A program made the position numbers and the translations under genes. The notes beneath the pieces are model-generated. The model saw only the letters and a list, made by a program, of their open reading frames with translations, did not search any database and was not told the DNA's origin. A stretch of 61,514 bases of DNA, the filler included, from Hausera hauseri (lineage: Eukaryota), in assembly GCA_046269625.1 (NCBI GenBank). It is 10 parts of 10 records of this genome, joined end to end, with 100 filler letters (N's around TTAATTAATTAA, not from the genome) between each part and the next. Parts side by side here need not be neighbours in the genome. Positions count along the whole stretch, not along the records: positions 33,106 to 38,700 come from JBJURY010224298.1; 9 more parts are not named here. The stretch is one strand, 5' to 3'. Positions 4,871 through 61,514 of this stretch are shown one piece after another (the stretch's first letter is position 1; every line of letters starts with the position of its first letter).

Positions 4871-4925
4871 AAGTTAGTATTGCCCATTTTTTGAACAGAT
4901 GTATTTCAAAACGGGAAATGTTGTT

Positions 4926-5165
4926 GAAACGGGTCGAGTACAGCGGATCACTCTTGTCATAGTTTGACGTATCTAACTGCTCGTTTGCTATCATTGCTGG
5001 CAGGAGCTGTAACCTCAAATAAACACGGCATTCGATAAAAAAACTATCTGTATCACCGGCAACAATATTAAGTTCAGACTGAAACTGGTGCCTATATGTC
5101 TCCGACTTGATATAATTTAGCTCATACATCCGTAACTTGGATAGATCAAGTACGTCATGTCCGAT
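4926..5165 (-). mobile_element. polB: Polinton/adintovirus-type protein-primed DNA polymerase B fragment
   Basis: IG..VLDLSKLRMYE..GDTDSFF..DTSNY motifs; highly similar in DNA to about 14530-14780. Confidence 0.85.
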
Positions 5166-5181
5166 TATTTAATTCGTACGT

Positions 5182-12538: not shown

Positions 12539-13188
12539 ATGTTAGAAAAAATAACAACTTTAGACAGAAAGGTAAATAAATATTTCACACCTGGTTCAGT
12601 TCTGCGAAAACATTGCATTGGGTTTTGGTTTAGAAATGAAAGAATATTATTCAAAAAAATGTTATTGGCATAGTTACAACTCACGGAGGAAAGTTGGTCC
12701 AACGAAAGCCAAACATCTATTGGATTGATTCGAAAAGTAAAGTTTACATTCCACACGAGGGTGATCGTATTATTGCCAAAATTGCGAAAAAGACGAATGA
12801 CTATTATTTTTTAGATTATGGAGGTTTTTCCTACGCCCATTTGAATTATCTGAATTTCCAAGAAGCAACAAATAGCAATAGCCCAGATATAAAAATTGGG
12901 GACATTATTTATTGCCAAGTAATTCTGGCCGGACGTGGCATAGAACCAGAAGTTTCTTGTATTAATAATATGGGAAAATCAGTCGGTATGGGTGTTATCG
13001 ACCATACTGATGATTCGGTCATTAAACTTTCCCTACCATCTGTGAGGAAATTGTTGGATATTAAAAATTTTCCCTATTTGAAGAAATTAGGGTTAGGAAT
13101 TTTGCCTCATGAAATCGTTATTGGTGCCAATGGTTGGATTTGGTTGTCGGCCAGATCGAGCAGAGAATACTCTACGCTTTTGAATTGA
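12539..13188 (+). pseudogene. EXOSC3: Exosome subunit RRP40/EXOSC3, intronless, with 5' frameshifts and a premature end
   Basis: YWIDSKSKVYIP..GD.II, F..AT..N.P.I.IGDIIY, EPEVSC and IGANGWIW motifs. The N-terminus (FTPG / LGFGL / IVTTHGG) is split over three frames. Confidence 0.85.
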
Positions 13189-14199: not shown

Positions 14200-14862
14200 T
14201 CCACACATGTCAATATGCGACACTTTTGTTCTTGTCAATCCACTGGCATTTGTCGTTGAACGGATCTAATGCTTTCTTTTTTGAGCTGATTGTCATGAGC
14301 TGGTTGTTTTAGTGCCAATTCGCCCCTGATCCACCATGGTGCTATAACCGGTTTCATAAGCCTGTAGGTAGCTGTCGAACTGCAAGTCTGTCTGCTTGAG
14401 ATTTATGCCCTTGCATTTAAGGACTGGTTTGGTTTGGGTTTTGAGGGCATAGGATTTCGGCCGTAGGAAAATCGTCTCTTGATACTGAACGCAGCCCTTG
14501 CTTTCGTCTTTAAATTTGCCAATTACAGCTGCGAAACGAGTCGAGTACAGCGGATCAGTCTTGTCATAGTTCGATGTATCTAGCTTCTCGTTTGCTATCA
14601 TTGCCGGTAACGGTTGCGACTTTAAGTCAACTCCACAGCATTCAAGGAAAAACCTGTCTGTGTCACCTGCAACAATATTAAGTTCACACTGAAACCGGTG
14701 CCTATACGTCTCCAAATCGATATAATTAAGTTCATATATCCGTAACTTGGAAAGGTCAAGTACGACCTGACCGATATATGAGGGTTTATCTAAAGTAACC
14801 ATGTCTTTATCAAGGAGAACAGTTACCAGAGGTTTGTCGAATTTATTAAATTGCTTATCCAA
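14200..14862 (-). mobile_element. polB: Polinton/adintovirus-type PolB, C-terminal fragment
   Basis: KPSYIGQVVLDLSK, GDTD, DTSNY, IGKFKDE, LRPKSY and KCKGI, then frameshifted KKALDPFNDK. Confidence 0.9.
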
Positions 14863-14940
14863 ACCGAATTAGATAACAAATGTTGGAAGACAGCTAAAAT
14901 CATTGAAGTTTGGTCAGTGTGTATGTTTTGAGGCAATAAT

Positions 14941-21835: not shown

Positions 21836-22895
21836 GGGGTAAATATTTCAGTTGATTTAGAATGCGATTTTATCAGGATTTATTAAACAATAACAATTCA
21901 GAATTTGGTATAAAGCATAGTAAACTATAATTTTCATAGGATTCTCTGACAAGGGGTAAATATTTCAGTCTATATAACTCATTCGCCTTAGTTCTATTCA
22001 TTTTGTTTTAAACTATTTTCTTCTGCAACCCTTACAGTATTCAATAATTTAATTTAAATTAATTGGTTTATGATTTTTTATTTAACTTGAATGTTCATTT
22101 ACCGTATGAGTGAAAGTTTTGAAATAATTGTATATCTTGGGTAAATATTTCATTCCATAACACTGGTTAAAAGTGTTCTGTTGTGTATTGTTTCATTCTG
22201 TGTTTTCTACAATTTTTGAAACAACTACTAAGTCATTGGAAATTTTACAATAAATTGTTTATTTGGTAGTTTATAAAGCCTTGTAATATTTACCCCACAT
22301 GAGACTAATTGTGGATTTTATGGGAGTTAATATGTCGTTAAATGTAAAATCCTGTGTAAATTTCTTTAGTACAAAGTTGCTCATAAATGCAATTTATGTT
22401 TCATGCATTATAAAAAGATTTTTGATAGGGTTCTCTGAAAAGGGGTAAATATTTCATTCTGTATTACTGAATTATATTAGTTCTACACATTTCGTTTTTT
22501 TTACTATTTGTAAAAAAAAACAATATATGTATATTTTCCAGTATTCAATAATTCATTTGAAATTAACAATTAATTGTTTTTTTGGCTTTTTACTAAGCTA
22601 TACCTTTCATGTACCCATGGAAAAGAAATTTTTGTAATAATTGTATATTTGGGGTAAATATTTCACTCTACAGCACCCTGGTGTATTGATTCATTCTGTG
22701 TTTTGTACATCTTTAAAAACAAATACTATTTAATTGTTTCATTGGTAGTTTATACAGCCTTGTAATATTTACCCCAGATGAAACTCATTTTAGACTATGC
22801 GGAATTAATATTTCGTTGAATACGAAATTCTGCGTAAAAGTTTTTAGTATAAAACTGTCCATAAATTCAGTTTATTTCAATTTATGTTTCATACA
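21836..22895. repeat. Diverged tandem duplication of a ~490-bp unit rich in GGGGTAAATATTTCA motifs
   Basis: Motif at 21836, 21953, 22138, 22442 and 22651; inverted variants at 22282 and 22761. Offsets between paired copies are 479-513 bp. Confidence 0.85.
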
Positions 22896-33105: not shown

Positions 33106-35660
33106 ACCAAAATCATGAGAAATGGGTCATGTGCAACAGCTGAAACAGAAATTCCATTAACCAGACATCGTACTATAGAATATTGGATCTAAAATAAAAC
33201 CAATATTATAAAATGCAGAATAGATCATTAAAAACCATATTTTTGTTGCCCTTTTTCATTTGATAAATTATACCAAATATATTATCGAACAACGACTAAC
33301 GGTCATACCTGGTCAACATGGTCAGACAGACCAGTAATAGTACAATGGGTCCCATCAACAACCACAACCATTTCAACAAAGAAAAGGACTATTTCGACAA
33401 TGCAACCCAGCAGTTCGATGATACCAACAATAGAACCTAAGAAGGATATTAAAGAATTAGATGTAATTATCCAACCAAGAACTAACTCATTGGTCATTAC
33501 AGTATCTGATCTAAAGTCTACGAATATAAAATTTGAATGTTATTCTGGTCATAAAGTGGTCGGTGAAGGAGTACTGACTACAGACGAACCAACATAATCC
33601 TGTATGCTTTTAAAGGCTGATACTCATTATGGAATTATTGTGACAGAGTTGGATGAAGATAGACAGGTCTTGCAGGTTATTAAAAGAATAGAAAAAACAT
33701 TAAAATTACCAATGATTGTTACGACGAGGATTATAGGAACAACTACCATGCGAATTCAAGTAGAAACCTCTAATAAATATTTTTGGATGGTTATCACTTT
33801 AGGCGTCCTTCTAGCCTTAATAATTGTATTATTACCGATAATAACTTATTATTCAAAAATAAGACGTAAAAGACGAAAAACAAAAGAAATACTGCACCAA
33901 TTAAAGTTACTACGGGAAGAATCATTAGATGAATCGGGAGATGACCCAAATGCGCCTTGTAATAAAGAGTGGCCAGCTGAAAAGCTAGCCAACCTAAACT
34001 AGCAGGTCGAAAGACCTATCAATAATGGGCAAATAGTCCCATCACTTAAATGACAGGCTATAAAGCCAGCCGATATTAAAAATTACATTCGCTCGACAAC
34101 AGATATTACTGTGTGCTTATGCACGCATGTTTACGACGAGGCTGCTAAAACCTTTGCGACCTATAAAAAGAAACGATTAAAACATAATATTTCTGTTATA
34201 TTATGGCCGCTGTCAATTGATGTATTTTTAGTCGGCGAATGATCCAAACAGGCCCAGCAACCAAGCAGCTTTTATCGCAATATCGTTGCCAATCTATTGG
34301 CGTCTAACAAAACCTATGTTTATTATGAAAAAGCTTCAGTGATACCAAACCATCTATAAGGACATACAACAAATCAAAGAAGTGGCCTTATAATTAAACT
34401 ACAAACATATTCTACAAAGCTATCCGACTTGATTGATATTACAAAAAGAGCCATGGCTATATATATATATTTCGGTATCAAAAGGAACCATTCAACTGAA
34501 AAGTAAAGTCGGTCCTAATGGAATTACAGACACAATTAACATTCCACCACCAACTACGATTAGATTAGATGAAAGATTCTTTAAAAATGTAGAAATGGTT
34601 ATCAGAACTATAAGTGAAAGTTATCCAATCATATATATTGAAGTCATTAAACAAAAAAGTATTTTTCATGACGAATTAAAACTATTCAATTATTCAATAC
34701 CAATTCCTAATGATTCCTTACTGGAAAAAGGTGCATCATTCAAAAGATCGACTCAAATACGAAAGGAAGATATAGTAATTGTGGCAACCAGTACCGCGTA
34801 TGTTATGGAACCTGTCCGCAAAATGGAAGTTGCCCTTATTGAGGTAACCATTATGGATTTGAATGGTAAGATTATTTTGGACAAAGTGTTGTGCCCACGT
34901 GACCGGATAGACAATTACAACAGCCACGTGACCGGCTTAAGAGAACCGGATATAATAGGACAGACAGATCTTTCACAGACGTATTCTCTGATCAAAACTC
35001 ATCTTGTCAGAAAAGTTATCGTCGCAATGAATATATTTCATACTCTTAACTATGTTCTTAGATGCAGTCACCACCTCGTGATGGGTATAAGAGATCTACT
35101 TTATCACGAGAGAGCTAACCCAAGACAAGAATTTAATGCTAAGTACATCCTAACCGCATTTAATAATGGCGTCTATCCCCAACGAACAAAAGCCAAGGCG
35201 AAATCGATGTTGAATATATATAATACCATCCCGGACTATAAAAATGAAAAATTTATAAACGATACATCACCACCAAATATCTTTACAGTCGATATCGAAG
35301 TTAAAAAAGATACAAATGAAATGGAAGATTATGCAAATAAACCCATAAGCAATGAACAATCCTTTCACACCCCTTTAACAAAAGATACGATGCTATTACC
35401 GACGAAACAACCCAAAGAAATAAAACAAAAACAATACAGTTCAACAGAATCCTTAGCTCAAATCACGGTCGGTCTAACAAAAAGTACAAGATAATAAATC
35501 ACCACTAAAGAAACGATTACATTAAAACGAAAAATTAAAGAAGATCAATGGTTGGAAATAGATGCAGTACGATACCGACGCCCTGACGGATCTTACAAAA
35601 TCTACCCTCTGAAGTCGAGGACGGCTTCATCTAAGGAGGGAAGTGTCGAACATGTGAACT
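33106..35660 (+). pseudogene. Accessory 3' ORF of an LTR retrotransposon: FN3/WSxWS ectodomain, Thr/Ser stalk, TM helix, cytoplasmic region, DEDDh-like exonuclease fold
   Basis: Frame +1 from 33106 to about 34460, broken only by point stops, then a frameshift at an (AT)n run into ORF 34433-35494. WSTWS at 33310-33324; TM YFWMVITLGVLLALIIVLLPIITYY followed by KIRRKRRK; REX4/ISG20-like IEVTIMDLNGKIILDKVLCP..IDNY.SHVTGL. Ends across the PPT. Confidence 0.65.
35633..35643 (+). other. Polypurine tract
   Basis: AAGGAGGGAAG immediately before TGT, preceded by the Gypsy-typical TCGAGGACG. Confidence 0.8.
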
Positions 35661-36342
35661 AAACAAATTGACATATTATGATCGTGCGAACTGACAATTA
35701 ATTTTTGTTGACATATATTAATATTGATTTAAAAATCCGACTTCATTCTTTTTGATATTATCTTGATCAAGTTCAACTCTCATGTAATTATATTTATCAT
35801 TGAAAAAAACAAATGTAAATTTCCTGCGATTTAACACTTAGAAAAGGGGTATATATATTTCAACATTTATCTGTAAAATTCATTAACAATTCATACATCT
35901 TGTATGTCTTATCATGTCTACAACAATTGTGAGTATGTTTTTGATCGATTTATTTTAGTTGTTTGTCCCTTTTATTATATATTATTAAAAGTTTAATAGT
36001 TTCACTTCGTATCTATTATTGTATATATAAAGGTATAATTTTTGGTAGTAAGTATAAATAAGATTAAAATTAGGGCCCTTCCATTTCAGCGTCCATAAAG
36101 TCGCTGATTTTAAACTCACTTATAATTAAGGGGAAAGACCGCCAGTATTGCCTCCTGGCGACGAACTCACACTAAGGCCAATTAAAAATCTTGAAATAAG
36201 TCATAGCTACCCACAGATGGCTACTTTAAGACTTAAATAAAAGATAAGTTTGAGGTGTACTGACCCAAAGTATGTTTGAAATAAATTCGAGGCTTGGTGA
36301 CTAAAATCTCCAAGCTAATCTATACGAATCTTAAACTTATCA
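35644..36342 (+). repeat. Long terminal repeat, about 700 bp
   Basis: TG...CA termini bracketed by a PPT and a PBS. Internal TATATAAA (about 36023) and AATAAA (about 36237). Confidence 0.8.
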
Positions 36343-36343
36343 C

Positions 36344-36360
36344 TGGTGCAACGAGTGAGG
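36344..36360 (+). other. Primer-binding site, elongator tRNA-Met-like
   Basis: TGGTGCAACGAGTGAGG one base after the LTR end; resembles the TGGTGCCCCGTGTGAGG complement of elongator tRNA-Met. Confidence 0.7.
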
Positions 36361-36496
36361 AGGCACACTGGCGTACAACACTCGAAATAGAGTTAACGCT
36401 AATATTGCAACTTCACGCACTGATTCAGCAAGGAGTAGTTGTGAATCAAACGAAAACCCTCTGATCAAATTAAATACCCTTATAGAAAGGAACCCA

Positions 36497-38700
36497 ATGT
36501 CTAGTTCTGGAATAGGAACTGGTTCAAATATAACTGCTACAATGGTCCTCCCGATGGATAAGTTTGAAGGAAAACCGGACCAAGATTATAGTGAGTTTTT
36601 GATGCAATATCAAATGTACTCACAGAGCTTCGCATGGTCAGACGAGCTTAGGATACAACGTCTTCCCTTACATCTTAAAGGAATAGCACTTACAGCTTAC
36701 AGATTATGATAAAACTGATTGGGCTAGCCTTAAGGACGCCTTGGAAGAAAGACTTTTAATAGACCCATCAGGAACAGGTCAAAATGGCGAGTTCAACAGG
36801 CGACGTCAGAGAAAAGGCGAAAGCGTGCAAGAATACGCATGTGCCCTTCAGAAATGGGCCCAGAGAGCCTATGCAGATGATGACATAAAGGGAAGATGCC
36901 CTCCTGGCTCAGTTTTGCTACGGAGTTACTAAGGAAATACAAAATTATATTATTGTGGCAGATCCCAACATATAAAGAAGGTGTTAGTAAGTCCAGTAAG
37001 ATAGAATTGAACTATGAAAGATTAAAAAATATTAAAAATCCTCACAAAACTGATGATAAAAAGATGAAAAACTCTCAGTTGAAGAAAAATTTTCAAAAAC
37101 CGTTCTATAAAATTCAGAATCAAATTGGACAACAGCAGAAGAAGGTTACGTGGCAACAAGATCAACTTCAGAAATCTGCGATGAAAAAACCAACGGTTAA
37201 TCAAAATGGACAGCCATTATGCTTTGCATGTCACAAATATGGACATATGGCTCGAACTTCTCCTAATCAAGGACAACCAAGTCAAAAAAATGTCTATATA
37301 GTAGGTAATATATCTGACAGGGATAATGAACACGAAACCACAGATACAGAACCCGAAGAAACAATTGAAAAGCTACAGCAAAAGATCAGATCCAAATTAA
37401 AAGAAAATAAAACCAATACAGTAGAAGAGGAAGATAAGATAGCTGAAATAAAACAGCTATATCTTGAATTAAAAGAGCAACAAATCTGTGAGAAAAGACA
37501 GAAAATGAATGATGAAAGTTCAGTTATTGCTCCTATTGGTAGACCCAAAAAGACTCCTGCATCAGAATCGGATGTTGAAAAGAAAAGGGTCAGAAAAAAA
37601 GATAAACCTTTGATACAAGAAGAAGAACTGAAGACTACGGAACTTAACTTACCTTCTGGAAGTAAAAGTGGAAAAAGCGAATCAAGTGAAGAAAGTAAAC
37701 CGAAGAAAAAGATAAAAGGAATAAGGAAAAAGAAAACAAATGAAAAGTCTCCAAGTTATGAGTCTTCATCTGTCGATTTAGATCAAGATGGCGTAGAAAA
37801 AATTCGGAAAATATCTAGCTATGCCAACCAAGAAATAATCGATGGCACTCGGTTTAAGCAAGACCTGTCTATGTTGCTATTGCCAACTATCAGCCATCAA
37901 CAATTTGCTAATTTACTGGATTTACTGTTAATATATGCTGCCGGTACAAGTCCATACCAGAACATCGTACGGTATATAATTTACCGATACGCGGACAGGG
38001 TGAGGACAATCGGAGAAAACCCTGAAGTAGTAGTTACTCTCCAACAATATAATCAAGACTTCCATGCTCTTAGAATGAAATCGTTGGATACAATAGTTAT
38101 GTTAAAACATAAAATTAACGAAATAAGCCAACCTCAAGGAGAATTGGAATTACGCTTTTATGGACGAGTGTTGATGGATTACGAAACTCTATATGAGGTA
38201 GGTATTTGGGAAAATCGATATAATCCCGTATGTATTACTTATAGACAGTCTGAGCAAGAGATAATTGATGAAATTATAACTGATGTTAGGCGAAAAGAAA
38301 TACAAGAGGCCGAACGCCAATATCAGGCTCAACCAGTGGAAGTGGGAGGAAATATACCTATATCGGAACAAATACAAACGGACAAAAGAAACCGTGGTAG
38401 ACCGAAAGGAACGACGAAACTTTACCAGTTGAAAGGCAGGAAAGCTAGAGATGACGAAGTTGTTCGAAGATTGTTAACAACGGAAGATGAATATGATGTA
38501 GATAATGTATCATTGGCAACATTACTACAAACCTTGCTAGCAAGAATGCACAATGCATTCGTTGAATTCAATACCAATTTACAAATACCAGACTCATTAA
38601 CGCAAAATATTAGGAACGAAATCGCAAAGATTAGTGAACAATTTGCAGATATTCCTACAGACGAAAGGATAAATGAAATACAGGAAAGAGATATATTATC
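36497..38700 (+). mobile_element. gag: Ty3/Gypsy gag (frameshifted) with a long C-terminal extension; truncated by spacer
   Basis: FEGKPDQDYSEFL..W..LHLKG.AL, RRQRKGESVQEY and the knuckle CFACHKYGHMARTS. About 480 further codons with no protease motif seen. Confidence 0.8.
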
Positions 38701-39156: not shown

Positions 39157-39537
39157 AACTTTTCAAGCAGTGGGTACCAGAAATTAGTTAAATGTTCCAC
39201 TAATTCCTTATGTACGCGGAATATATTTGTGTTGTTATGACAAACAACGCACCTTCCTTGGATCGATGCTTGGATCCTGAAGATCGAATGTAAATGGGGA
39301 CGCGATGCAAAGATCCACCTGCCTGGCCCTGCCTCCGTCGGAGCAATAAAATGTTAAATTTCCTTGAGGCAATAACAGCGAGGTTTAATACCAGTACCAT
39401 TCACAATATGATTGTAATAATCTGTCTAGTACGTCAACATCTCACAAATTTATTATTATTATTGTTAATTATGGCTGGTTGTACGGTGTTGAATGGACTA
39501 ACATTTTCGTCCCAGTCGTATGATAACCTTTACATGC

Positions 39538-40047
39538 TAGGGTTACAGTACAGTTACGGTTAGGTTTTTACGGTTAGGGTTACGGTTACAGTTACAGTTA
39601 TAGTTACGGTTACGGTTAAGGTTACAGTTATAGTTACAGTTACGGTTACGGTTACAGTTATAGTTACGATTACAGTTACGGTTATGGTTACAGTTATAGT
39701 TACGCTTACGGTTACGGATACAGTTATAGTTACGGTCACGGTTACGCTTACAGTTATAGTTTCGGTTACGGTTACGCTTACAGATATAGTTACGGTTAGG
39801 TTTACGGTTACGGTTATAGTTATAGTTACGCTTACAGTTATAGTTACGGTTACGGTAACGGTTACAGTAATAGTTACGGTTACGGTTATAGTTACAGTTA
39901 CGGTTACGGTTACAGTTATAGTTACGGTTAGGTTTACCGTTACGATTACAGTTACAGTTACGGTTACGGTTACGGTTACAGTTATAGTTACGGTTACGGT
40001 TACAGTTATAGTTACGGTTACGGTTACAGTTATAGTTACGGTTACGG
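39538..40047 (+). repeat. Degenerate telomere-like hexamer array (TTACGG/TTACAG/TTATAG, one TTAGGG)
   Basis: About 85 hexamers; canonical TTAGGG at 39574-39579. Confidence 0.9.
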
Positions 40048-40049
40048 CT

Positions 40050-43000
40050 GAGTACCGGAAAGCCATTGCGTACTGACGATGAAGTGAGGGATTTAAAGCA
40101 CGGTTCAACAGTTCATGTTATGTTCCAGTTAAAAGGAGGAAGCGAACTGACCGTAGATAAGCTCTAAGAACGTATCGCGGAACGACGAAAGCCCATAAAC
40201 GAGTTAGCCTTGATTAGAAGGAGGCTGATGGACATAAATTTGAGTGAACATGACTACAACGTGTTCTACCAAAGTTATAAAAAGATTTTCTCAAATGTCC
40301 AAGAGGAACTATGTTTATTGACGACCGCAGCTAGAAAATTAAAGAGAACGTAACGCTACTGGAGAAGGAGATGGAGAAGTTGGACATTTCATCGAGGAAA
40401 AGTCACATAGGACCATAGTAGCATTGAAGAATTGGATTGAAATAGAAGCGATGGTCAGGAGGAATGCCATAGAGAGAGTGAGAGGGATAGAAGCGTTCAA
40501 CACAAATCAAGATGGTCGATATTCACCCGTAGAGAATAGGAGGTCGTACTTTACCACGAGATCACGGGCTGTAAATAGAGAGTACGAGAATACGAATTCC
40601 AAAACAAAAGAATGAGAAGTTAAAAAGGGAAGCAATCAAACCACCCCAATATACAGCGAGAAGATCGATCCCAGAGATGCTGGAATTATGATAAGAACGG
40701 TCAATGCAAATTCGGAGAGAATTGTAAATATTTACATCGACCTAGTAAGGACGATCAAAAAAGGATATGTTGGTATTTCGAGAAAAAAGAATGTAGGTAT
40801 GGGAATAATTGTAAATTCCTACATGGAAAAATTGGTAGCAAGGAAAAGGATAAAAACAGCTATGACAAGGAGGATATAAAGCAAAAAACTAAAAATTCTT
40901 GTGAAAACATAATAGGCACGACAACAAAAGAATCCGCACCACGGGCATTAAAGAATGAAGAAGGAAAAGAAGAAAAAAGTAAACAAAAGGATGTTAGAAC
41001 CTACGTTACCCAAGGTTCTGAGGAGACAAGTGAACAGGAAGAAATAGTAGCTCTGAGAACAGTGGAAGTATGGTTAAAGAATGGGAACAGAATGAAAAAA
41101 GCAATAATGTTGTTAGACGACGTTAGCACCGACAGTTTCGTCGATTCAAAAATATGTGAAGAACTAGGTGTCGATAAGAAAACAGAAAGGTTGACGATAA
41201 CAGTCGTCGGAGAGAAACAGACTGAGATGTCTATTGACAGGGTCAATATGATATTGATAAATATGGACCGATCGGTAGAAGTCAAATTTGAGGCGATCGC
41301 TATGAAAAATCCAACTGGAAACATAAGGGCAGTGAATTGGTCCAGAAAAACAAAAATAGCCCCACCTAAAGCACTTAAGGTTTCCCACATTGTCGCACAA
41401 CTTAGAAGTAAATGGTATTGTTGGGGCAAACTTTAGAGTTACACAGGTAAATCAGAAATATATGGCAAAATGGGTGCGCCAGTGGTGCGGTTAACTCCGT
41501 TAGGCTGGACCTGTGCAGGACAAATAAAAAAGGAAGAAAAAACATAAATAATAATTTCATAAGAACATTTTGGACAAGGACAGAGGAAATTCAAAATGAT
41601 CTGAGCTACCTATGGGAGGTCGACTTTAACATGGACGAAAAAGAGTTTGAGAGGAATAAGCAAGACGAAGAGGCAATAAAGCGGATATTAAAAGAAACAA
41701 TTTATCAAGAAAATAGATATTGTGTGCCGTTACCATGGAAAGGGGGATACAACCTGAAGTGGAAAACAATAAATGGATGGCAGAAAAACGATTGAAAACT
41801 CTGAGGAATAAGTTAGATAAAGATGAGGAGGCAAAAGCGGCCTATGAGAAGGTAATAGAAACACATACGAATGAAGGGTATATCCGAGTAGTGGAGGAAC
41901 AAGAGGAACAAGAGACAGCTTGGCTGTTGCCACATTTTCCGGTTATGAAAATCAATAGGGAAACCACGAAATGCTGGATAGTTTTCGATGCTGCTTCGAG
42001 ATATCGGGGAAAGTGCCTGAATGACTTTCTAGATCCTGGCCCGAAATTACAATTAGACATCATAGATATTATATTAAGGATGAGAAAACGACCATGAGTT
42101 GTCATATGTGACATCCAGGAAATGTTCTTACAGATTAAGGTGAAACAATAAGACAAAAAATATTTAAGGTTTCTATGGTATAAGGATGGGAAACTTAAGA
42201 CATACGAGTTCAATCGGTTAGTATTTGGGTTGAACGCCTCTCCATTTCTGGCACAATTGGTATCAAGGCATAACGCTGAAAGGTTCAAAGACAAATTCCC
42301 CAGAGCCGTAGAAACGATGGAATACTCTACGTATATGGATGATTGCATTGACTCTGTCAGCACTGAAAAGGAAGCTGTTTCGTTATACAGCGAGCTAAAT
42401 AAGATTTGGAAAAAGGCTAGGATGGAACCACGCAAATGCGTGTCAAACTCTAATGAATTGATAAAAATAATACCTATCACGAACCGAGACAAAGAATTCA
42501 ACATACTGGAAAAACCGATGTTGTCACCAAGACGTTGGGGATGAAGTGGAATATCGAAGAAGATAGATTCAAGTTTGAAGATCGTCGTAAGCAAGAAATG
42601 GAGATAACAAAAAGAACAATATTAAGCGCATTGGCGAAGATGTTCGACCCGTTAGGTTTCCTCAGTTGTTATACATTATCGGATAAAGTGTTTCTACAGC
42701 AACTGTGGATGACGAAAGTAGATTGGGATGAAAAGATCCCGAAAGAATTGAGTGAGAAAATAAGGATATGGATAAAAGGAATGGAGAACCTAAGTACAAT
42801 GAAGGTAACAAGGTATTTATATTTTAAGGAAGGTAACGACATTGAGATACATATTTTCTGCGACTCTTCAAGGTGGGGGTTTGGGGCGGTTGCTTATTTA
42901 AGATTGATGGTGGAAGGAAAGATTAAAGTAGTAATCATATGCTCGAAAGGTAAGGTGACACCGGTAAAGGCTGTAGCCATACCAAGACTGGAATTGATGG

Positions 43001-43076
43001 CAGCCTGTATAGGAGTCAAGCTAGGGAGAAAAGTGAGAAAAACTCTGTGCAACAAGAAGGAAGATATACAATACTG
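40050..43076 (+). mobile_element. BEL/Pao LTR retrotransposon gag-pol, 5'-truncated and degenerate
   Basis: Protease ALRTV..LLDDVS, LTPLGW, RT LPHFPV..TTK..IVFDA..CLND.L.PGP.LQ and YMDD, and Pao-type RH FDPLG..WD..HIFCDSS..IPRLEL. Confidence 0.93.
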
Positions 43077-43299: not shown

Positions 43300-46200
43300 A
43301 ACACGAGGAATCGACTCGAATATTCTGTATTACTGTTCGGTGATTGCATATTCAGTACTGTACTGACAAGAACAATATCCACAAAGGCATTTTGACTATT
43401 TCGAGGCGGAGCATTGGGAGCCCACCTGTGGGCCCGACACGGCGGCGACGAAAGCCCGGCCGTGCCCAACCACATGGGCCAAAGGGTACCGGCCACAGTG
43501 GGCACCACACTCCCACCAATCGTTTCGGTGGCAGTCGCTGCAACGGTAGAACAATAGCTAAATCAGCTAAGTGCTGAAAATGCAGCACTGTATGCAACAA
43601 TTAACAATATTAATAATAAATTGAATGAACTTTTGCTGTCCCGCCGAAGGGATTTTGTCCCTGATCGCGCCATTTCTTTACATAGAAGCCGGTCACAGTC
43701 GCCTGCGCGGTCATCTATCTACTATTATCATAGCAGATTCAATAAAAGTGCCAAAAATGCTGCCTATGGTGCAGATTTTACAATAAAAGTCTTTCATCGG
43801 ACACCGTTGTTTGCATTTACCACGAAAAGTTTAAACATCAAGCCCATAAATGCATTGCAGGCTGCACTTTCAAAACAGATTCGAACGACGGACGTGCCAC
43901 TTTTCTTCTAATAGTCGTCCTGGTTCACCTTTCCAAAAAAACTAAGCTTGCCGCCAGACGTCACGGCAAACTCTGGCAAAGGCACTGCTTTACCTTCTGA
44001 ATGCCGACACGCCTCTTTTGCTGTCTTTAAAGGCTGCAATCACTGCTCTTACAACGCAATCCATTGATTTTATCATTGACACAGGTGCAGCGATCTCTTT
44101 ATTGCCATAAACTTTTCCTGTCCAAAATTCGCCATTCAAAATCAAGTCTTTATACACCGCTTTGGGTCAACTGCTGTACATTTATGGCATGGCTAAACTA
44201 TCTTTTACCTTACCAAAATTTCCTTCACCTTTCCACTAGACGTTCACAGTTGCTAATGCCCAGATGGAAATTCTATGTTCTAATTTTTTATCCCGTTATA
44301 ATTTATTGGTTGACTGAAGTCAACGATGCCTGAGGAGTGGCACCACTGACAGCGTTAGTAAGCACATAAATAGCATTTCGACTACCACGCAGTCGATCGA
44401 TACGCGGACATCAATTTTAAGGAAATCAAAAACTAATTCGAATTTTCGTAACAATTACATTTTATTTCATAAATTTTTAAATCATAACGTTGATATTCAG
44501 TCGATGTTTGATGTCGATAATTGTGGTACTGTTACTAACGTTAATTCACTCGACAAAATCACTTCATCCAACACCATTTTCAATTCCACCGTTTTTCACC
44601 AAATACCAATTGACTTTACATAAGCAAACAATTCACAAATTGCATCCGCTACTACTCAAGCTGCTTCACCATCATCACTGAATCTCTCACAGTTGCCTGC
44701 AAGTTTGCAGCAATTCGTCAACACACAGTACTTTACATAACATAGTTACACAGCACCAACGACCAATACGTCAAAAGGTACGACCACTATCACCCCGTCG
44801 CAGGCAGGCTGTAGAAACCAAATGTCATGAACTAGAACGCTTCGACATTGTACGCCGTTCTAAATCACCTTGGTCGTCACATTTACATGTCGTACGAAAA
44901 AGAGCGGAACTTTTAGACCATGTGGCGATTATCGACAATTGAACAACTTGACCATTAATAGATGCATACCCCCTGCCACTCATCAAGAATATCTTGCATC
45001 GCCTTAATTCAACCGCAATTCATTCGACCATCGATTTGACCAAAGCATATCACCAAATACCGGTGGCACTGAATGACATAGAAAATACTGCTATCAATAC
45101 TCCTTTTGGTATCCACAAGTATCTGTTTAAGCCATTCGGTTTGCGAAATGCGCACAGATTTTTAGCGACACATTGACTAAATTCTCTCAGATTTCCAATT
45201 TGCGCACCTTTACATCGATAATATTATGATCGTTTCCTCTTAAGCCAAGCAACACGAAGAACACCTCCGTGCAATATTCCAACGCCTTAAGGACTATAAT
45301 TTACAAATCAATTTTGACAAATGCCATATCTTCAAAAAGTGCATCAACTTTTTGGGTCACGTTATTTGACCAGAAGGCCACTCTCTCCAACCAGACCAAG
45401 TTGAAGCCATTAAGAATATACAGTTACCACGTACGACCACTGAAATGCGCAGCTTGCTTAGTACACTACACTTTGCACATAAATATATACCATATTGTTC
45501 TGAACTGACAGAACCATTTGCACACTTAAGCGGCGGCAAAAATATCACAAAATTCAATGGATACCTGAACTGCTTGACAAATTTGATAAGCTATGCAAAC
45601 GAATTAAGACCGTGAACATTCTCGCTTTCTACAAGCCTGACGCGGAACTTATCCATACCACAGACACTTTAATCACTGCGGTAGGTGCTGTGCTTTACCA
45701 AATCCACAAAGGAAAAAACCAACCGCTGGAATTTTTCTCTGGTAAGTTAACACCGCCTGAAACTAGATACTCAACGTTAGATCGAGAATTATCGGCCATC
45801 GTTCTCTCTTTAAAGCATTTTTTCCACCTACTTGTCGCTTGCCATTTTACCATACAGACCGATCACAAGCTCTTAATTAACATAATGGCTATGAAACATC
45901 CTTCCACACGCCAAGAACGACAGATACCATATCTGTCGACATTTAACTTCGACATAAAACATATTAATGGGGTTGCCGATTTTTTATCTAGGTCGGTTAG
46001 TTCGATTAATTTTCACCAATCTTTACTCAAGCACAACTTCAACAGAACCAGCCATTTCAAAACATGCTTAATTCTTTCAAGTCTTGCACAAATATTGACG
46101 GCGTGGCTTTAGACACTTCCAAATCAGGTCAATCCGCAATAATTCTTGCACCATCTTTGCAAAGGCAAACATTTAATAGTGTACATTCGCTACACCATCC

Positions 46201-47130
46201 TGGTGCTAAAGCCACTTTTCGATTACTTCACCGACAAGTAGTTTGGCCGTCAATGCGTTCTGATGCGCAGGCATGGGTTAGGGAGTGTGTGGCTTACCAA
46301 AAATACAAAACAACTAAGCATCTAAAGCCACCACTATTCCACTTTTCCTGCACATTGCGTTTCAAATCCGTGCATATTGACATCGTCGGCCCTCTTCCTC
46401 CAGACAACAGTCAGCAATTCATTCTCATTATGATGGACCATTCCTCGAAATGGCCAGAAGACATCCCTCTGCGGAGCATAAATACCGACACCATAGCTGA
46501 TGTTTGATTGGTATATGGATTAGCAGGTTTGGATTACCTCACTTCATCATCCAGAACCAGGGTCCACAGTTTGAATTTAACCTGTTCAAATCTTTTGTTA
46601 ACCGATTGGGGATCCATCACATACATACTACGCCTTATCATCTCCAATCGAATGACCTTCTAGAACGTTTCCACCGAATATTGAAAACGTCACTAAGAAT
46701 CCTTGCAGAGTCCAACACTAGTTGGACAACCCTTCTTCTGATTGGTTGGCGGAACACTCCGTCTGATTCTACGGGATTCTCACCTATTGAAGCCTTATTC
46801 GGGGTTTCTGTACGATCGTTATTTGAACTAATTGCCCTGGACGACACTCTAACAAATGAAACGATACGGGCAGCGCAAAATCACTTCGTTACGGTCAGCA
46901 GAGATTCATTCTGCAGGTTACTCCACAAAGACAAAACATATTTACCCGAAGATTTGTATTGGGCAAAATTCGTATGGCTAAAAAATCAAACGCCGTGCTG
47001 TTTTCAGCCGGGGTATCTGGTGTCCTATAAACTGGTGCAGCTACATTCGCATAATTTCTAAAGACGGAAAAGCACTTACAGTGCATATCACGAACTTAAA
47101 GCCCGCCTTCTTTATCGACGACACTTAACC
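43300..47130 (+). mobile_element. Ty3/Gypsy (CsRN1/Mag-like) gag-pol, degenerate
   Basis: YYHSRF gag motif, protease IDTGA, RT RPCGDYRQLN / DLTKAYHQIP / PFGLRNA / YIDN, RNase H AVGAVL..YST.DREL..TDHK, integrase HPG..WP.M..HIDIVGPLP..ERFHR.LK. Confidence 0.93.
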
Positions 47131-47949: not shown

Positions 47950-50900
47950 TATTTCGCCCAACCACTTACGCCTATCATCATCGCATGATAAAGCGACTTT
48001 TGTATTGGTCATCGTATACAGCTGGTGCACAATCGACCGGATGATCGTTTGTGACACAGCAGCCTTTGACTGTCCTTCTTCTTCATAGATACGGTGATAA
48101 TCACCGTGGTTTATTTCCATCTGAGCCAACTGAACTCCTTTGGCGCGCATTTTCGGCCCACCATCAGTTAAAAGGCTAATATTTTGACCATAGAAATATC
48201 CCTTCCCGATAATAAACCCGATATTCACTTTCATCCTTGAAGCAGCCCGTTTTGTTGGTGATCGCGCTGCTGTACAATGGATGATTCGGTGGGTAGTTGG
48301 ACGTGTCCTGTAATCCGTCTGACTGCATTTGCGGCAGTAGCTGTTCGCGATTGACTTTTTTCAGCCGCAGGAAAAAACCGTCTGTGTCACCGGCAATTAT
48401 ACTAATGTCACAGCCGTAAAACATTTGCCGGTAACGTGCCAAGTCGGGATACTGTAACTCATACATCCGCAACTTGCTCAGGTCCAATACCACTTGTCCA
48501 ATGTAACTTGACCGGTTCAGAACGACTTCTTCACTGTTTAACAGCACCGCAACCAATTCATCGGCAATGTGCATTGACTGCCGAAACTGTGCCTTGCAGG
48601 TATACGTAAACAGCCGATTTTCGCTGTTTCATAGGTGTACATCGAGCCGCTTTTTCAGATTCTCCACTGTTTTTCCTCACAGGGAATTGTTTTGCAGCTT
48701 GTAGTAGTCCTTTTCGAACTTTGTGCAATCTGCGGCTCGTTTTTGCAAAATACCATCTATGTACTCCTTGAATATTAAAGCCTGGGCAAATCGGATAGCG
48801 CGATAGAGCTGTGTGATGCGTACACCCAACCGAAAGTAAGACTGCAACAGACGACAATGAACTATGTAATTTTGCTTGGATTCATGCGTCATAAGCAGCT
48901 TCTTCACCTTCGAGCCCGGCGTACATTGGCTAATTGGTGCAACCGGCAGTTCATCCAGAAATTCATCAACTTATCTGTTACCACGAAATTGACCTCCATC
49001 TAGTTGCCGACTGAGCTGTTTTCTGCTGTTGTTGTGTCTGATGTCGACAGCTTTTCCAGTATTGTGTCTAGGTCTTGTTTGTCGACTACCCATTCAAATG
49101 CACCCAACGGCAAGGGTTGTGAAAACGTCCAGCCGTACAGGTTATTAATGTCGATATACAACAGCAATGTGGTATCATCACTGGTTACGTGATGCTTGTT
49201 AACAAATGCCATACTGCGACGAATACCAACGTCAAACATTCGGTACATTTCCGAGTCTTTCAATAGCTCGATATCCCGATCCAGTGACATCATAGCTGAT
49301 GCCCAACTCATTCCGGATATTGAGAAAAAATTGAGTGACTCAAGCATGTCTTCTGCCAAAACTTTCGCTTGAAACGCATGGAATACATCGGTTAATAAGT
49401 ACATATCCAGTTTGAGATACTGGAGCATGTACTCCAGCATGTTTGTACGGCCGAGTTCTGTCCAAGATTCTTGTGCTCTTTAATATTTATCTTCTGTGGT
49501 GCCTGTCCATCGCGGCGGTAATTACTCGGCTGTCCGGAGTCGCTCATATGATGTTGCAAAGTCATATGGAAATATGCCTTTGCTGCTTGCAATATGGAAC
49601 CAATTTATTCGTGCTGACGAGGACAGGTACTTCTTCATTTTTGTTGGGATTGTGGACAGTTCCCAGTGCGGAAATCCGTTGATTGTCCATTTCAGTATAT
49701 GGTGACAATAATAACCTTGCAAATTATGAAAGATCACCGGTAGGAATGGCCACACACGCCTTGCCAAATTGCATGAATTGCATGCTGCTCCTAGGAATCG
49801 ACCGGTAAAATGATCATGATCCGGTACGAGCCGTCCCTGTGCATTAAAAGGCAACATTTTGTGGCAGGGACAACATTCATCAATGACATCGAAAAGCAGC
49901 GGTTCATATTCTCATGTTTGTATCAAGGGCTTAATGCTATTGTTACTGTACCACTGTACGATTTCCGTTTCCACTATCGTTTCCAACTGTTGCAGGAAAT
50001 CGCGTAAATAGTTCCAGCTATGAAAAACGTAATTGAGGCTTTTATTAGAACAACCAACATACCCACGGCGATTGGAATGTGTTTTTGGTTGAATACGTTA
50101 TGCCGTGGTAGGATTGCCTCGATATCGGCCTATACCACATATGCTGGACTCTCTGTTTTCAATCAGTCACTGAATCTCAGCTCTTTTATGTATCTTGTTG
50201 TCCCTGATAAATTTTGTCTGCACAGCACCACATGTTATTCCAATGTCGTTTTTGACCTGAAACCATGGAGATATGTAGGACACCATTTACAATTTATAAG
50301 CTTTTTGATAAATTGGTAGTGATCCATGTTCAGCAATATGTCCAAATTGGTTACTTACACGTAGTGAAATTTACCTTCTTGCTCCAACAGCAACAAATTC
50401 ACCGAGCGTCCATTCAGGTTCCGACTGAGATAAATTATATCCACGTGTGGGTTTTGGTATATATTATCGTCTGCCGGTATTTCTACTATAATGTTGTACC
50501 GGAAAACGTTGATTGCGAGAGTAGGAATACGCCGTTCAAATGTCGGGATGGATTTCTGTTTCATCGGCATCCAGCTTTCATCGAATTCCAATTCGGCAAA
50601 ATACTAGCGATACTGCTTTGGACGATTTGTATGATTTCTAACCACTTCGTCGTATTTGAATATAGCCAGGATACTGTAAATAAAACAGTATTTGTCGTCG
50701 GAATTTGTGCATTCATTACCGCCAAAGACTGCTTTAGAGATGCAGGTGTCGGTATGAATGACCATTCAGACAAATATACCACGTCACTCGACTTTGTTAT
50801 GATAAAGCCGAGAGTGGCAATTCGTATAATTCGCCATTCACTACCCTTTTCTGTATAGTTGGCAATTTTCTCATCCAACTTTTCGCCTACATCGGCAATA

Positions 50901-57515: not shown

Positions 57516-60500
57516 AAATTTGCTTTCCCGGATACAGTGACTGTTTATCCATTAGCCGATCAAAATTTGTTCTAATATCTTCTAAAGTACCAGTTGTAAA
57601 CTGTTCTTTTTCAATTTCGAATGGTGATCTGATGCACAATGAAAAGAACATCTCAGTGTCTTTTGTATTCCGCAGAACAACACGTTTCTTAAATTTCACC
57701 GACTTGCTAAGCGCAAAGCCATTATTCGTCTGCAGCAGGGAGCTATACGGGGCAATTAATGAAACTTCTTCTACTTCTTCTGCATCAGGATAGTCGATTT
57801 GAAGTCTTGGCTGCAATATTCTTGCCGTAATATCCAATCGTATTTGATTAACTAAGTACTGATGATGTCGTACTATTTTATTCTTCACCAACAAATCTTT
57901 AGCATTCAAAGAAATAATGCCCAGCAAATAGTTATATAAATCAATGCCCATATTTTCGTCCCATGTGTAATGCCCATCAGAGGTAGGATCGGCTGGTACA
58001 AAATGAACTGTAATAAATGCAAAAGACTCGGCAGCAATGTGGAGTTGATACGGTTCACAGAAGATGGGAAATTTGGATAGGGTTCCATCATGTGGTCGGA
58101 TGATAGTAGAAATGAAATTCGTAGTTGCATTCAATAATTGAATATCCTCAGAGAACTCGGTTCTATCTGTTGCATTTACATGGTTATCTTTCGAGCAAAC
58201 TGTTCGATCCGTTGCATTTAATACTCTCTCGGTAATTTGCCGAGTTGTGCTACTGTTATCAGTATCAATCGTTTCATCATTTCTGGTATCTGATCGTAAC
58301 GAATCAATATTATTAGATTCTTTAGTCTGACAATTTTCGTGACTAATTGGAAATGGATCGCCAAAATTGACAATGAAATCAATGAGTTTATCATCGGAAT
58401 CATTCGCATTTCGATACATCTCCAAATTTATATACATATCGTATGGACTTTTGTTGTTCAGTCGTATTTGTCTTGTTACAATTTCATGGCCAACGGGTTT
58501 ACTACCTAGTCTAAGAATAGGTTTCTGATCCTTTCTACCAGCAGTCATTGTAAATTCAATAGGAGCTCCAATTATACGAATGGACATAGGAATTGTAATA
58601 GGTTCGGTTTCGACTGTCTCCGTAGTTCCAGAAATCGTAATTTTATCCCCGTATGAACCCCACATATCGTTAAATGCAGTGACTTCAACGACGACCTTTT
58701 CATAACTATCAAGTATTCCACTAGAAGGATTAAAGTCAACTGCCAAACCATTTTTATGCTTAAGTTTGTTTTTGCAAAAATCATAATGCGCCAGATAGTC
58801 TGGTTTGCTTTGTTTGTCTGCAAGATTCGGTTTCAATTTGAAATTTACTTTAACATCATCTGACGATGCTTTGAAATAATCAATCAGAATTGAAAATTTC
58901 GTCACGATAGAAGTCGTATTTTCTATGACGATGTACTTTTTGACGTCTTGAAAGATGGCTACATCTTCACCAAAATCAATGCTTGTATGTCGTTCACATG
59001 AATCAATAGTATCTAAAATACTATATTCCAATCGAGGTCCTCGACATATTCCAACAATTTCCAAAACAATAGGTTCTGTCATATTTTCAATCAAACATGG
59101 AACGAAAATATCTTCCAATTCCGTCACAACAGAGCACGTAACTGCCAATTTTACAATAACTTTACCATTCGGTGATAAAGTTCCTGATTGAGGATCACAA
59201 ATAACGTTCACAACATTTGACTGATCTCCACGAGGACTTTGCCAAACGTATCTACATTCAACATGGCTCTGGTTGCATAAAATGACGTCAAATATTGTTG
59301 GAGAGATGACGTCAAAAATGACGTCAAATATTGTTGGTGGAGATCTGTTTCCTACTAGGGTAACCAAAAGAACTCTGTAATTTGTGCCTCGCAAATCTAA
59401 GGCCATGTAATGTCCACGTTCATTGCCAGTTGGTATTTTCATCTGAAGTGACATTTTTTTCAAAGTAGCATACTGACGTTTCTGTATGTTTTTCGTTAAA
59501 AATTTATTATTTATCGAAACAGTTCCATTGGTTATTCCAGAATGGTAACTCGAAATAGAGTTTGAAGGATAATCCATTGCGGAATGATTCTGGTCAGAGC
59601 TGGAATGTAAAGAAAAGATACTCGGGTTTGGATATGGGGTTAATGGTGAAAACAATGGTTTACAAACGCCGATATCATTAATTTGTGATGAAGATTTCGA
59701 AGGAAGGATGTTTTTAGCCACCACATGATTTGGACACGTTGTATATTTCGGATTTGGTTTTAAAATCGACGACTTCATGCGGCATTTTTTGCTCGCCCTT
59801 AACTTAGGAGCATGACCAGTTCTCTGTACCCTGTTGAAAAGTAAATTCATATGACTGTTCTGAGAAAAGTAATAAAGTGGCGCCGGTGTCAGAGATGGAG
59901 GATGTATGTCGATGTTTGTATAAATCTTATTATGCCTTTTAGATGGATATACATGAGGTTGACAACATGACTGATACATCACAGGAGCAGGTTTCAGTTT
60001 GGGAATATCAGTGAAGACTTTCTCACAAAATGATAATGGGATATTAACGAATTTTAGATTTGGATCGTATTTAACTGATACAATAACGCATTCATCATCA
60101 GAATCATCGGTAATATTGTTATTGTTCTGATCGTGCATCTCGTTCTCAGTGACAGGCACTTTCGTGGTTATAATTACATCTGCATCACTCTGCTCTGATA
60201 TTGTTTCATTGGGAGTCTGACTTCCAACGGATGCAACAGTCGATTCACATTTACCATCATAATGGACACTTTCATTAACATCAGGAGTATCAAGTGGATC
60301 GGTATCGGAATTACAATTAGAATTTACAAGAGGATTCGGAACAAGATGATCGTCAGAATTGTCAGGAAGAGTATTATTTTGACAATAAGGATTTGGTTCT
60401 ATACTTTTTTCAACATTACTGCAATCAGTATTGACCTTTTCAGGTGACTCGATGTCCAGATCTTCCGTATCAATTTGAAGACAATTCGACGGTTGTAATG

Positions 60501-60993
60501 ACACGGGGGAGAGTGTTGAAGTAGCGTTCAATGAATTTTCTGTATTCAAAGCATCTTCTGTGATTGAAAAATTGCACAATTCTTGATCTGATGAGACCCT
60601 TTTAGTTTCTGATTCTTTAATACCATTACTATTTCCTTCAATATTTCCATTCAACAAAACTTTATAATTCTGATTTTCCTTATCCTTACTGATAAACAAC
60701 GAAATATGGTCAAATTGACTACATTCGTCCAATTTCTTGTGCGGTGAACATGACTGTCGTCGTTTGCATTTATTAATTGCTAACGTCAACGCAGCAATGT
60801 CCGGCTTGCTTTTCCGTTGTGCCGTTATTCTTGTCGGTGAAATTGCCGGGGATATGTTAATTTTCACTTTTGGTTCTGTTTTGTTCGATGCATTTTCAGA
60901 TGGTCTGAATGGTTTCAATATTTCTGACACCATTGTTGTTATTTGGTATTCTTGTGATACCGGTATATAAAAAATTCCATTAGTTAATTCCAT
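57516..60993 (-). CDS. Mosaic ORF: hexokinase N-terminus, ~470-aa low-complexity insert, hexokinase phosphate-1 segment, DLEC1/CFAP81 internal region; truncated by spacer
   Basis: VSEILKPF (about 60993-60898) and IPTGNERGHYMALDLRGTNYRVLLVTL (about 59340-59480) are hexokinase-like. 59285-57516 matches DLEC1 (P..G.L.P, PC....M..P..L, DFG, NDMWG.Y.D, R.G...G...VTR..RLNN.SP.D). Confidence 0.8.
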
Positions 60994-61514
60994 TAGTGCG
61001 TCAAAAGAAATGAACGACTGAACTGTTTATTGCTTTTAAAATTTTCTATAATCAATTTCTAAATTAATCATCAAAAAATGACTCATTAAACCGTACAATA
61101 AAATGAAATAGACTAATATAAAACATTCAGTAATCATACAATATATCGAGTTTATTTTGTTTCAAATTCCAAAAATAATAGTTTCCATATGTAATCAAGT
61201 GCAGTGCAACTTTTCCTTTGATTTTGATATCACTTTTTATCGCTGACATCTTGGGGTTTAACATTTTAACCAGCATATGTAATACTGTTGTATGTTTTTT
61301 GTAACATAACGCTTTGGTCTTTTTGACTGTGTTTCAATGGCACTTAGACATCCGCTTTTACTAGAGAAACTTCTCTTTCATAAAATAATCTTCATTTATT
61401 GGTGGTCTCCTGAAAAGATTATTGAGACAAATGAAATGTATCAAAAGACCAGAGAATCGAGAAAAACTGTCAAATTTAAATTCTCCAATTGCATTAAATT
61501 CTCCAATCGTAAAA

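Follow-up and report, generated by a model that had tools for sequence, protein, structure and literature searches.

Two probable accessory genes, for a membrane protein and a nuclease-like protein, in front of the LTR of a decayed retrotransposon from Hausera hauseri

Introduction

Does the open region in front of the long terminal repeat (LTR) on a short Hausera hauseri contig hold one captured host gene, or separate genes of a retrotransposon? The contig, JBJURY010224298.1 of assembly GCA_046269625.1, makes up positions 33106–38700 of the window, by which we mean the whole stretch of 61,514 nt that was analysed, composed of ten parts of this genome. It has N-linkers on both sides, and the neighbouring contigs in the window are unrelated to it. 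The initial annotation had described a cytokine-receptor-like membrane protein fused to a nuclease fold in the position of an env gene. Our analysis, for which the contig itself, the sequencing runs X1 and X2 and related loci served as context, leads to a different view: on balance, the stretch is probably what decay has left of the 3′ end of an LTR retrotransposon that exists in many copies and has two accessory genes, likely separate, before the polypurine tract (PPT). Gene 1 (33106–34242, plus strand) encodes a type I membrane protein and gene 2 (34243–35662, plus strand) a nuclease-like protein. We are confident of the anatomy, two accessory genes at the 3′ end of an LTR element, while the functions that we suggest below are tentative. 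The reading frames, the membrane helix, the order of PPT, LTR and primer site, the many related copies, the nuclease family and its lost acidic residues were seen directly.

Results and Discussion

The open region is part of an LTR element with many copies

An LTR of 699 nt with TG..CA ends and AATAAA motifs at 36236 and 36280 is located at 35644–36342 (plus strand) and is the sole copy in the window. It is preceded by a PPT (35631–35643, plus strand; purines at 12 of the last 15 bases) with a hairpin before it (z −2.5), and is followed at 36344–36361 (plus strand) by a sequence that starts with TGG and resembles a primer-binding site; no match for this site was found in viral contigs. The PPT and LTR of the initial annotation are therefore present, in the arrangement that defines LTR retrotransposons (TG..CA repeat, PPT upstream, primer site downstream). 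The 5.6-kb contig contains one LTR only, with a 3′ element end before it and a 5′ element end behind it. This layout would arise if two elements in tandem had an LTR in common, or if the assembly had been closed across the LTR. Neither reverse transcriptase (RT) nor protease nor any pol sequence was found on the contig, so that the Gypsy assignment of the initial annotation is tentative.

Upstream of the LTR, two frames contain few stops, 7 in the 466 codons of frame A (33106–34503) and 2 in the 409 codons of frame B (34433–35659), compared to 6.5% expected from shuffled sequences. An open frame of 353 codons was not seen in any of 2000 shuffles. The region is intron-free, as had been claimed, but the proposed single frame of about 2.5 kb in front of PPT and LTR is divided by a TGA at 34240. 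The stop codon of frame B (35660–35662) lies inside the LTR, which agrees with the claim that the 3′ open reading frame (ORF) terminates across the PPT.

Run X1 shares 49% of the window's sampled words and could derive from the source sample itself; run X2 shares 14%, and the copies in X2 are more distant. In X1, 12,930 contigs match the stretch, most of them less than 95% alike; those nearly identical to the window have a depth of 10–13. Summed depths, which do not equal copy numbers, were 313–2105 for the ectodomain and membrane region, 38–206 for the nuclease region, 13 (single-copy-like) for the middle of the LTR and about 8,000–48,600 for a gag-like frame behind the LTR. Because of these depths a single-copy host gene is excluded. 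The coding region occurs in many copies in X1. It is not an intron-containing host gene adjoining a solo LTR but the part of an LTR element that holds the accessory genes, near the 3′ end.

The assembly could also have produced a mosaic of repeat copies, so that no single molecule would have membrane gene, nuclease gene, LTR and gag in this order. The contig is short, no listed Logan contig covers the whole stretch, and depth varies 20- to 1000-fold between parts, all of which would fit such a mosaic. However, contigs bridge the border between gene 1 and gene 2, one contig joins 34406 to 35578, adjoining the PPT, the related locus L002 has the same order of gene types, and the LTR sits precisely between PPT and primer site. 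We consider a mosaic highly improbable.

Gene 2 and its family of nuclease-like proteins

Gene 2 consists of an N-terminal domain with an IPNxL motif, a REX4/ISG20-type DEDDh domain without catalytic residues, and a tail that extends into the LTR. Its frame is interrupted by one stop at 34357 and two more at 35492–35497, and switches near 34460–34500. The REX4/ISG20-like domain had been recognized in the initial annotation. Tested alone, the nuclease domain of the window matches weakly (ISG20, E = 0.059) and gives no match to Pfam RNase_T, but the assignment becomes clear through its relatives. A full phmmer scan resulted in 20 hits (best E = 4e-21), and the N-terminal domain with the IPNxL motif together with the DEDDh domain is common to 14 of them. 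We did not count the remaining six as family members; these are four cellular-type exonucleases, which served as outgroup, P0016, and P0012, a repeat protein that is presumably plectin-like. A Pfam RNase_T match was obtained for 5 of the 14 members. The family profile matches ISG20L2 (E = 1.5e-22), ISG20 (7.6e-14), SDN1 (6e-11) and also the PolC exonuclease, and Atlas agrees (RNase_T, 0.92). In the phylogenetic tree, which was rooted at the midpoint, the window and its 14 relatives (15 rows) form one clade (100/99) separate from the four cellular-type exonucleases. P0003 is sister to the window (100/98), while deeper branches are mostly unsupported.

The catalytic residues D-x-E, D and H..D are all absent in the window, with A/S, N/T and Q/K at ExoI, ExoII and ExoIII. 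The initial annotation did not mention this; the DEDD fold itself is real. P0003, the closest relative, is unbroken and equally without these residues, so that their loss probably predates the decay of the window copy. Among 16 relatives, ExoI D-x-E is kept in 9, 8 of which have the ExoIII His and Asp too, and is lost in 7.

Other comparisons gave less. For the nuclease domain, a model from the single sequence was of low quality (pLDDT 48) and retrieved weak RNase H-like rows only, the pairwise comparison of P0001 and P0003 was not significant, and the likeness of the C-terminal part of gene 2 to its relatives is marginal (best 26 of 500 shuffles). Word-seeded homologue searches with gene 2 found none longer (896 candidates) and none near its length (461 candidates). 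Viral contigs contained no match for the nuclease family, and phages none for P0007. Two other assignments were rejected. A rotifer-type DEDDy enzyme (RNase D/Rrp6-like) is ruled out by the PDB matches, which are ISG20L2, ISG20, SDN1 and PolC, and by the ExoIII His of the active relatives. A likeness of the tail to TIR/SEFIR domains had no support from Pfam.

Six loci with related genes were found, one of which (L006) is a bacterial-looking exonuclease locus and was dropped. The others represent four distinct elements, L001/L002 (one element), L003, L004 and L005. In all four the nuclease gene is unfused and has its own Met, and the upstream frames are all stopped or the upstream ORF is stopped. 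In L002, an ORF that fuses a protease to a membrane protein stops about 260 nt before the nuclease gene. Its order is aspartic protease, hydrophobic segment, ectodomain, Thr-rich stalk, membrane helix and basic run. The protease is in frame with this membrane protein of two hydrophobic segments (L002:3-1679, also L001) with no RT between them, and L001/L002 are possibly an RT-less LTR element lineage. The ends of L004 and L005 show a hairpin, a short purine run and TG, like the start of an LTR, which is suggestive of LTR-like ends. Gene 2 belongs to an old family carried by elements, and in its relatives the gene is a free-standing one.

Two minor features were noted at these loci. The ORFs upstream of the nuclease gene in L002 (L002:1679) and L004 (L004:1-112) both end acidic with a final T/S-E-V, which we take to be like a PDZ-binding motif. 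A small ORF behind the nuclease gene (L002:3590-3961 and L004:2264-2557) has a similar C-terminal stretch in both loci and no Pfam match.

The TGA at 34240 as likely border between the two genes

A profile of the family that was built without the window places the family's N-terminal domain in frame A from 34246–34267 (E = 1.4e-5), whereas the next-best place has an E value of 0.09. The N-terminus of the gene 2 family is thus located directly behind the TGA at 34240–34242 (plus strand). Contig comparison showed that related contigs differ at the stop at 33595, and among the 112 contigs over 33940–34520 differences were seen in 25 at the stop at 34000, in 14 at 34051 and in 4 at 34357. Since related contigs differ at these four stops, we attribute them to decay. 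The TGA at 34240 is the only one of the five stops compared that is unchanged, with no change at 34226–34258 among the 40 of 55 differences that were listed, and it is likely the true end of gene 1. It is spanned by contigs of depth 46 in X1 (about 85% alike) and of depth 31 in X2. Behind it, third codon positions account for 13 of the 24 differences listed (p = 0.028), compared to 5 of 16 before it, which would fit selection on gene 2. From these data we infer that gene 1 ends at this TGA and that gene 2 starts behind it.

The claim that receptor and nuclease are one captured host gene does not agree with a nuclease family that stands alone and forms a clade apart from the four cellular-type exonucleases. 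In that model the TGA at 34240 would be a nonsense mutation that arose long ago and was passed on to the copies sampled. It would account for the same frame on either side of the TGA, and the four other stops compared are indeed not common to the related contigs. Against it, the TGA falls where the gene 2 family begins, which is free-standing in other elements, contigs only about 85% alike carry no listed change at this position, and the nuclease groups with element-like relatives and not with cellular ones. That no longer relative was found among 896 candidates is weak evidence in the same direction. We judge a single captured gene to be very unlikely.

Programmed readthrough would also explain the arrangement. 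A conserved, leaky TGA would yield the membrane protein and, as a minor product, a receptor extended in the cytoplasm by a pseudonuclease, which would hold RNA at the membrane. The in-frame junction has no spacer and no in-frame Met, the TGA is unchanged among the 40 of 55 differences listed, and a third-position bias is seen behind it, all of which speaks for readthrough; in the available text on SIRE1, a single stop codon between pol and env provides a precedent (PMC2829016). However, the sequence behind the stop forms no stable structure that could act as a readthrough hairpin (z +0.31), the nuclease gene is unfused in the relatives, a hydrophobic stretch just upstream of the stop complicates the topology, and a variant probably omits most of gene 2. 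This variant is represented by an X1 contig of depth 115 that joins 34406 to 35578, for which the intervening letters are not supplied, and because of this joint copies without most of the nuclease gene probably exist, to which gene 2 would be dispensable. Taken together, readthrough appears unlikely, and we continue with two separate genes. Run X2 shows other joints, 34460–35048 and 35101–35578.

Gene 1 encodes a membrane protein with a probable FN3-like domain

Gene 1 comprises at least 378 codons, its 5′ end being cut by the contig edge, and is interrupted by stops at 33190, 33229, 33595, 34000 and 34051. The sequence YQIYYR..WSTWS, reported in the initial annotation, was located at 33274–33324 (plus strand) and resembles the end of an FN3 domain of the WSxWS type. 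It is followed by a Thr/Ser-rich stalk (33355–33435, plus strand; 52% T+S), a second beta-rich segment with the motif LKADTHY (33439–33720, plus strand) and a transmembrane helix with a basic stop-transfer run (33787–33885, plus strand). The helix at 33787–33843 is the one strong hydrophobic helix in gene 1 (hydropathy 3.1). Stalk, motif, single helix and stop-transfer run had all been described in the initial annotation and were confirmed.

The motif WSxWS was obtained in any frame in 14 of 2000 shuffles and together with the upstream Y..R in 0 of 2000, a pattern that was picked after being seen. No match to Pfam fn3 at E ≤ 10 was found for either piece of gene 1, and no PDB sequence matched gene 1. 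By comparison, host FN3 exons elsewhere in the window match Pfam fn3 at 3e-6 to 2e-10. Homology between gene 1 and these host exons of the window was undetected. The exons belong to a host gene with several FN3 domains on a separate contig (28931–31890, minus strand).

An AlphaFold2 model was calculated from the single sequence of residues 1–205, with X at three stops. Its mean pLDDT was 44. Residues 112–205 formed a beta-sandwich (pLDDT 50–64), while the WSTWS segment stayed below 50. VIA-align gave Z values of 7–8, tied among FN3 and other Ig-like folds. In Foldseek the best E value was 1.3e-3, with none at E ≤ 0.001, and 38 of 46 rows were titled fibronectin, monobody or FN3-receptor, the receptor entries presumably having FN3 content. 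According to model and structure searches, the second ectodomain of gene 1 is probably an Ig-like, FN3-like sandwich. The claim of FN3-like segments therefore stands, at low confidence, for the predicted fold of the second domain but not for its sequence, and the model lends it no support at the WSTWS segment, where pLDDT is below 50.

Class I cytokine receptors are also defined by a four-cysteine motif and by Box 1 (PMC1963337, available text). The cysteines of gene 1 (residues 9, 37, 47 and 48) do not form CX9-10CXW..C..C; a preceding domain may lie beyond the contig edge. On inspection, the tail of gene 1, which is basic and then acidic, has no JAK-docking Box 1 motif near the membrane. Box 1 is a proline-rich hydrophobic stretch, and none is present there. 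Gene 1 has WSTWS, but Box 1 and the cysteine motif are not visible in it and the searches returned no homologue, so that an origin from a class I cytokine receptor is no more than plausible. Gene 1 appears to be built as an FN3 surface receptor that is not assignable to class I cytokine receptors.

It is also conceivable that gene 1 was never a receptor, but a fast-evolving surface protein of the element, a minimal env-like attachment factor with mucin stalk, generic Ig-like sandwich and anchor, in which WSTWS arose by chance or convergence. This concerns gene 1 alone and is compatible with the two-gene anatomy. It is in agreement with the missing fn3 and PDB sequence matches and with the tied VIA matches, and L002 shares the plan of stalk, membrane helix, basic and acidic run without WSxWS or detectable homology. 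The shuffle counts for WSxWS, alone and with the upstream Y..R that was chosen post hoc, and the predominance of FN3 entries among the Foldseek rows speak against it. We regard this origin as possible, though somewhat unlikely. As for fusogenic env proteins, the visible 227 residues of the ectodomain have no RxxR and no second hydrophobic stretch, the 5′ part being outside the contig. The visible part of the membrane protein thus shows no sign of a fusion protein, as the initial annotation had stated.

Points against two accessory genes

Several observations weigh against the interpretation given so far. No homologue of gene 1 was found in a word-seeded search with residues 1–300 (2079 candidates), and its FN3 assignment depends on a model of pLDDT 44, no Foldseek match at E ≤ 0.001 and VIA Z values of 7–8 tied with many non-FN3 Ig-like folds. 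The membrane ORF of L002 has the same plan as gene 1 but is not detectably homologous (278 of 500 shuffles score as high). Gene 2 directly follows the TGA at 34240 in the frame of gene 1, without a spacer. An in-frame Met is missing close to its start, and the ATG that overlaps this TGA opens only 22 codons in another frame, so that gene 2 has no evident start codon. For 15 of the 55 contig differences no details were listed, and few contigs span the TGA. P0003 and P0019 start with a hydrophobic stretch. L004 and L005 have weak purine tracts (40–53% purine), and all five relative loci, which belong to two record series, could come from a single host.

Possible functions of the two genes

If gene 1 and gene 2 are separate, their products would be made from a subgenomic or a reinitiating message. 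Gene 1 would likely derive from the mRNA of a host FN3 receptor, and its product would likely be a non-fusing surface decoy or attachment protein, a role suggested by the lack of visible fusion features and of Box 1. Because no Box 1 is visible, it would bind ligands or neighbouring cells and not signal through JAK. The product of gene 2 would likely be a cytoplasmic protein that binds RNA ends. It could bind the 3′ ends of the element RNA, shielding them from host nucleases of the REXO/SDN type or competing with these, while catalytically active relatives would trim RNA ends. Inactive DEDD derivatives that retain RNA binding are noted in the available text on rotifer elements (PMC5408684). 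This functional interpretation of both genes is tentative, and the effect on host signalling that the initial annotation suggested is hypothetical.

A more far-reaching combination would be a so far undescribed, cargo-laden LTR lineage with a ubiquitin-like domain in gag, a captured WSxWS receptor ectodomain, a leaky UGA and a dead ISG20-like nuclease. We think this rather improbable; if true, a retrotransposon would have a virus-like cassette for immune modulation, which consists of a decoy receptor at the cell surface and a tail for RNA binding that is added in part of the molecules.

Comparison with known elements

The Juno and Vesta LTR retrotransposons of bdelloid rotifers possess non-envelope ORF3 genes (PMC5408684). 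They share with our stretch the additional genes in front of the 3′ LTR, which in rotifers lie behind pol; among them are a DEDD exonuclease gene and short ORFs with transmembrane segments but without env homology. Their nucleases, however, are DEDDy/RNase D-like with intact catalytic residues and without a transmembrane domain (PMC5408684), whereas the domain in the window is of the DEDDh REX4/ISG20/SDN1 type, has its own N-terminal domain and is dead in this lineage. Its gene follows immediately on that of a membrane protein whose ectodomain is predicted to be of FN3 type. Fibronectin and ubiquitin are mentioned 0 times in that paper (PMC5408684). A DnaQ-like domain is listed among known accessories (PMC6338049). 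The profile match to the DEDDh exonucleases ISG20, ISG20L2, REX4 and SDN1 (PDB 1wlj, 7yw5, 5z9x) spans the whole nuclease domain with E values down to 1.5e-22; gene 2 differs from them by its element-like clade, the extra N-terminal domain and the lack of catalytic residues in the window copy.

Gene 1 resembles class I cytokine receptors, as far as these are described in the available text, in the WSxWS that ends a beta-rich segment, the further FN3-like domain and the one transmembrane helix, but it differs in the mucin stalk after WSxWS, in having no visible four-cysteine motif and no Box 1, and in the absence of a sequence match. The giant gypsy element Burro of planarians has a gag with CCHC knuckles, then a long cargo region with a Ubi2/SUMO-like domain, and accessory ORFs (PMC6431247). 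Compared by description, the frame behind our LTR shares with it only the order from gag to ubiquitin-like domain. The env-like region of Burro lies between gag and pol and is fusion-protein-like, and no DEDD or FN3 gene is named in the available text (PMC6431247). SIRE1 is like the window in having two frames at the 3′ end that are split by a single stop codon (PMC2829016), but it is a plant copia element with the stop at the pol-env junction, and its env-like gene is expressed via stop-codon suppression, while readthrough in the window is hypothetical.

The literature searched, with most subscription papers outside its scope, described no REX4/ISG20-type family and no FN3/WSxWS membrane gene in env position, and contained no work joining cytokine receptor, WSXWS and retrotransposon. 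FN3 and LTR terms occurred together in a single work, which deals with a hookworm virus. Within this literature, DEDD cargo in LTR elements is known already, and a REX4/ISG20-type cargo family and a membrane gene with a probable FN3 domain appear to be new. Accessory genes in env position are a route by which LTR retrotransposons acquire virus-like abilities, and since the REX4/ISG20-type family includes both active and dead proteins, the role of such genes in the element can be tested directly. Large DNA viruses use receptor decoys, and if gene 1 were a cytokine-receptor decoy, a retrotransposon would use the same tactic.

A gag-like frame behind the LTR

A further frame, ORF1, follows the primer site (36497–38700, plus strand) and by its position belongs to the next unit or to one of the same family. 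It is broken near 36707–36940 and leaves the contig after about 730 codons, with a degenerate zinc knuckle, a charged region and a ubiquitin-like domain. We call it gag-like because of a general resemblance; Pfam gave no gag match, and a zf-CCHC match has an E value of 0.066 with the last Cys absent. The ubiquitin-like domain (38057–38209, plus strand) matches Pfam PF00240 (E = 2.9e-5, 24.2 bits compared to a cut-off of 25.4) and the UBL of RAD23 at E = 0.087, and Atlas gave no usable match for it. Viral contigs yielded no match for ORF1. It is likely part of the same element as the accessory genes. The very high read depth of 36497–38700 suggests a large repeat family.

Other features of the window

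An open frame of 1168 codons at 57521–61026 (minus strand) contains Ig-like domains of DLEC1 together with a short piece that resembles hexokinase (Pfam E = 1e-8, residues 525–561), and represents either a chimeric retrocopy or a misassembly. A broken BEL/Pao element is located at 40624–43074 (plus strand), with two CCCH zinc fingers in its first frame (E = 8e-12). Another LTR element has left fragments of its RNase H and integrase at 45504–47061 (plus strand). Three related fragments (4797–5168, 14293–14868 and 48176–49911, minus strand), of which one piece was scanned and gave no Pfam match, presumably resemble the protein-primed DNA polymerase of Polinton-like elements. The window also contains an RRP40/EXOSC3 coding stretch in one open frame (12640–13188, plus strand), a tandem array of 12/18 nt at 39472–40131 and a diverged duplication of about 490 nt at 21931–22794.

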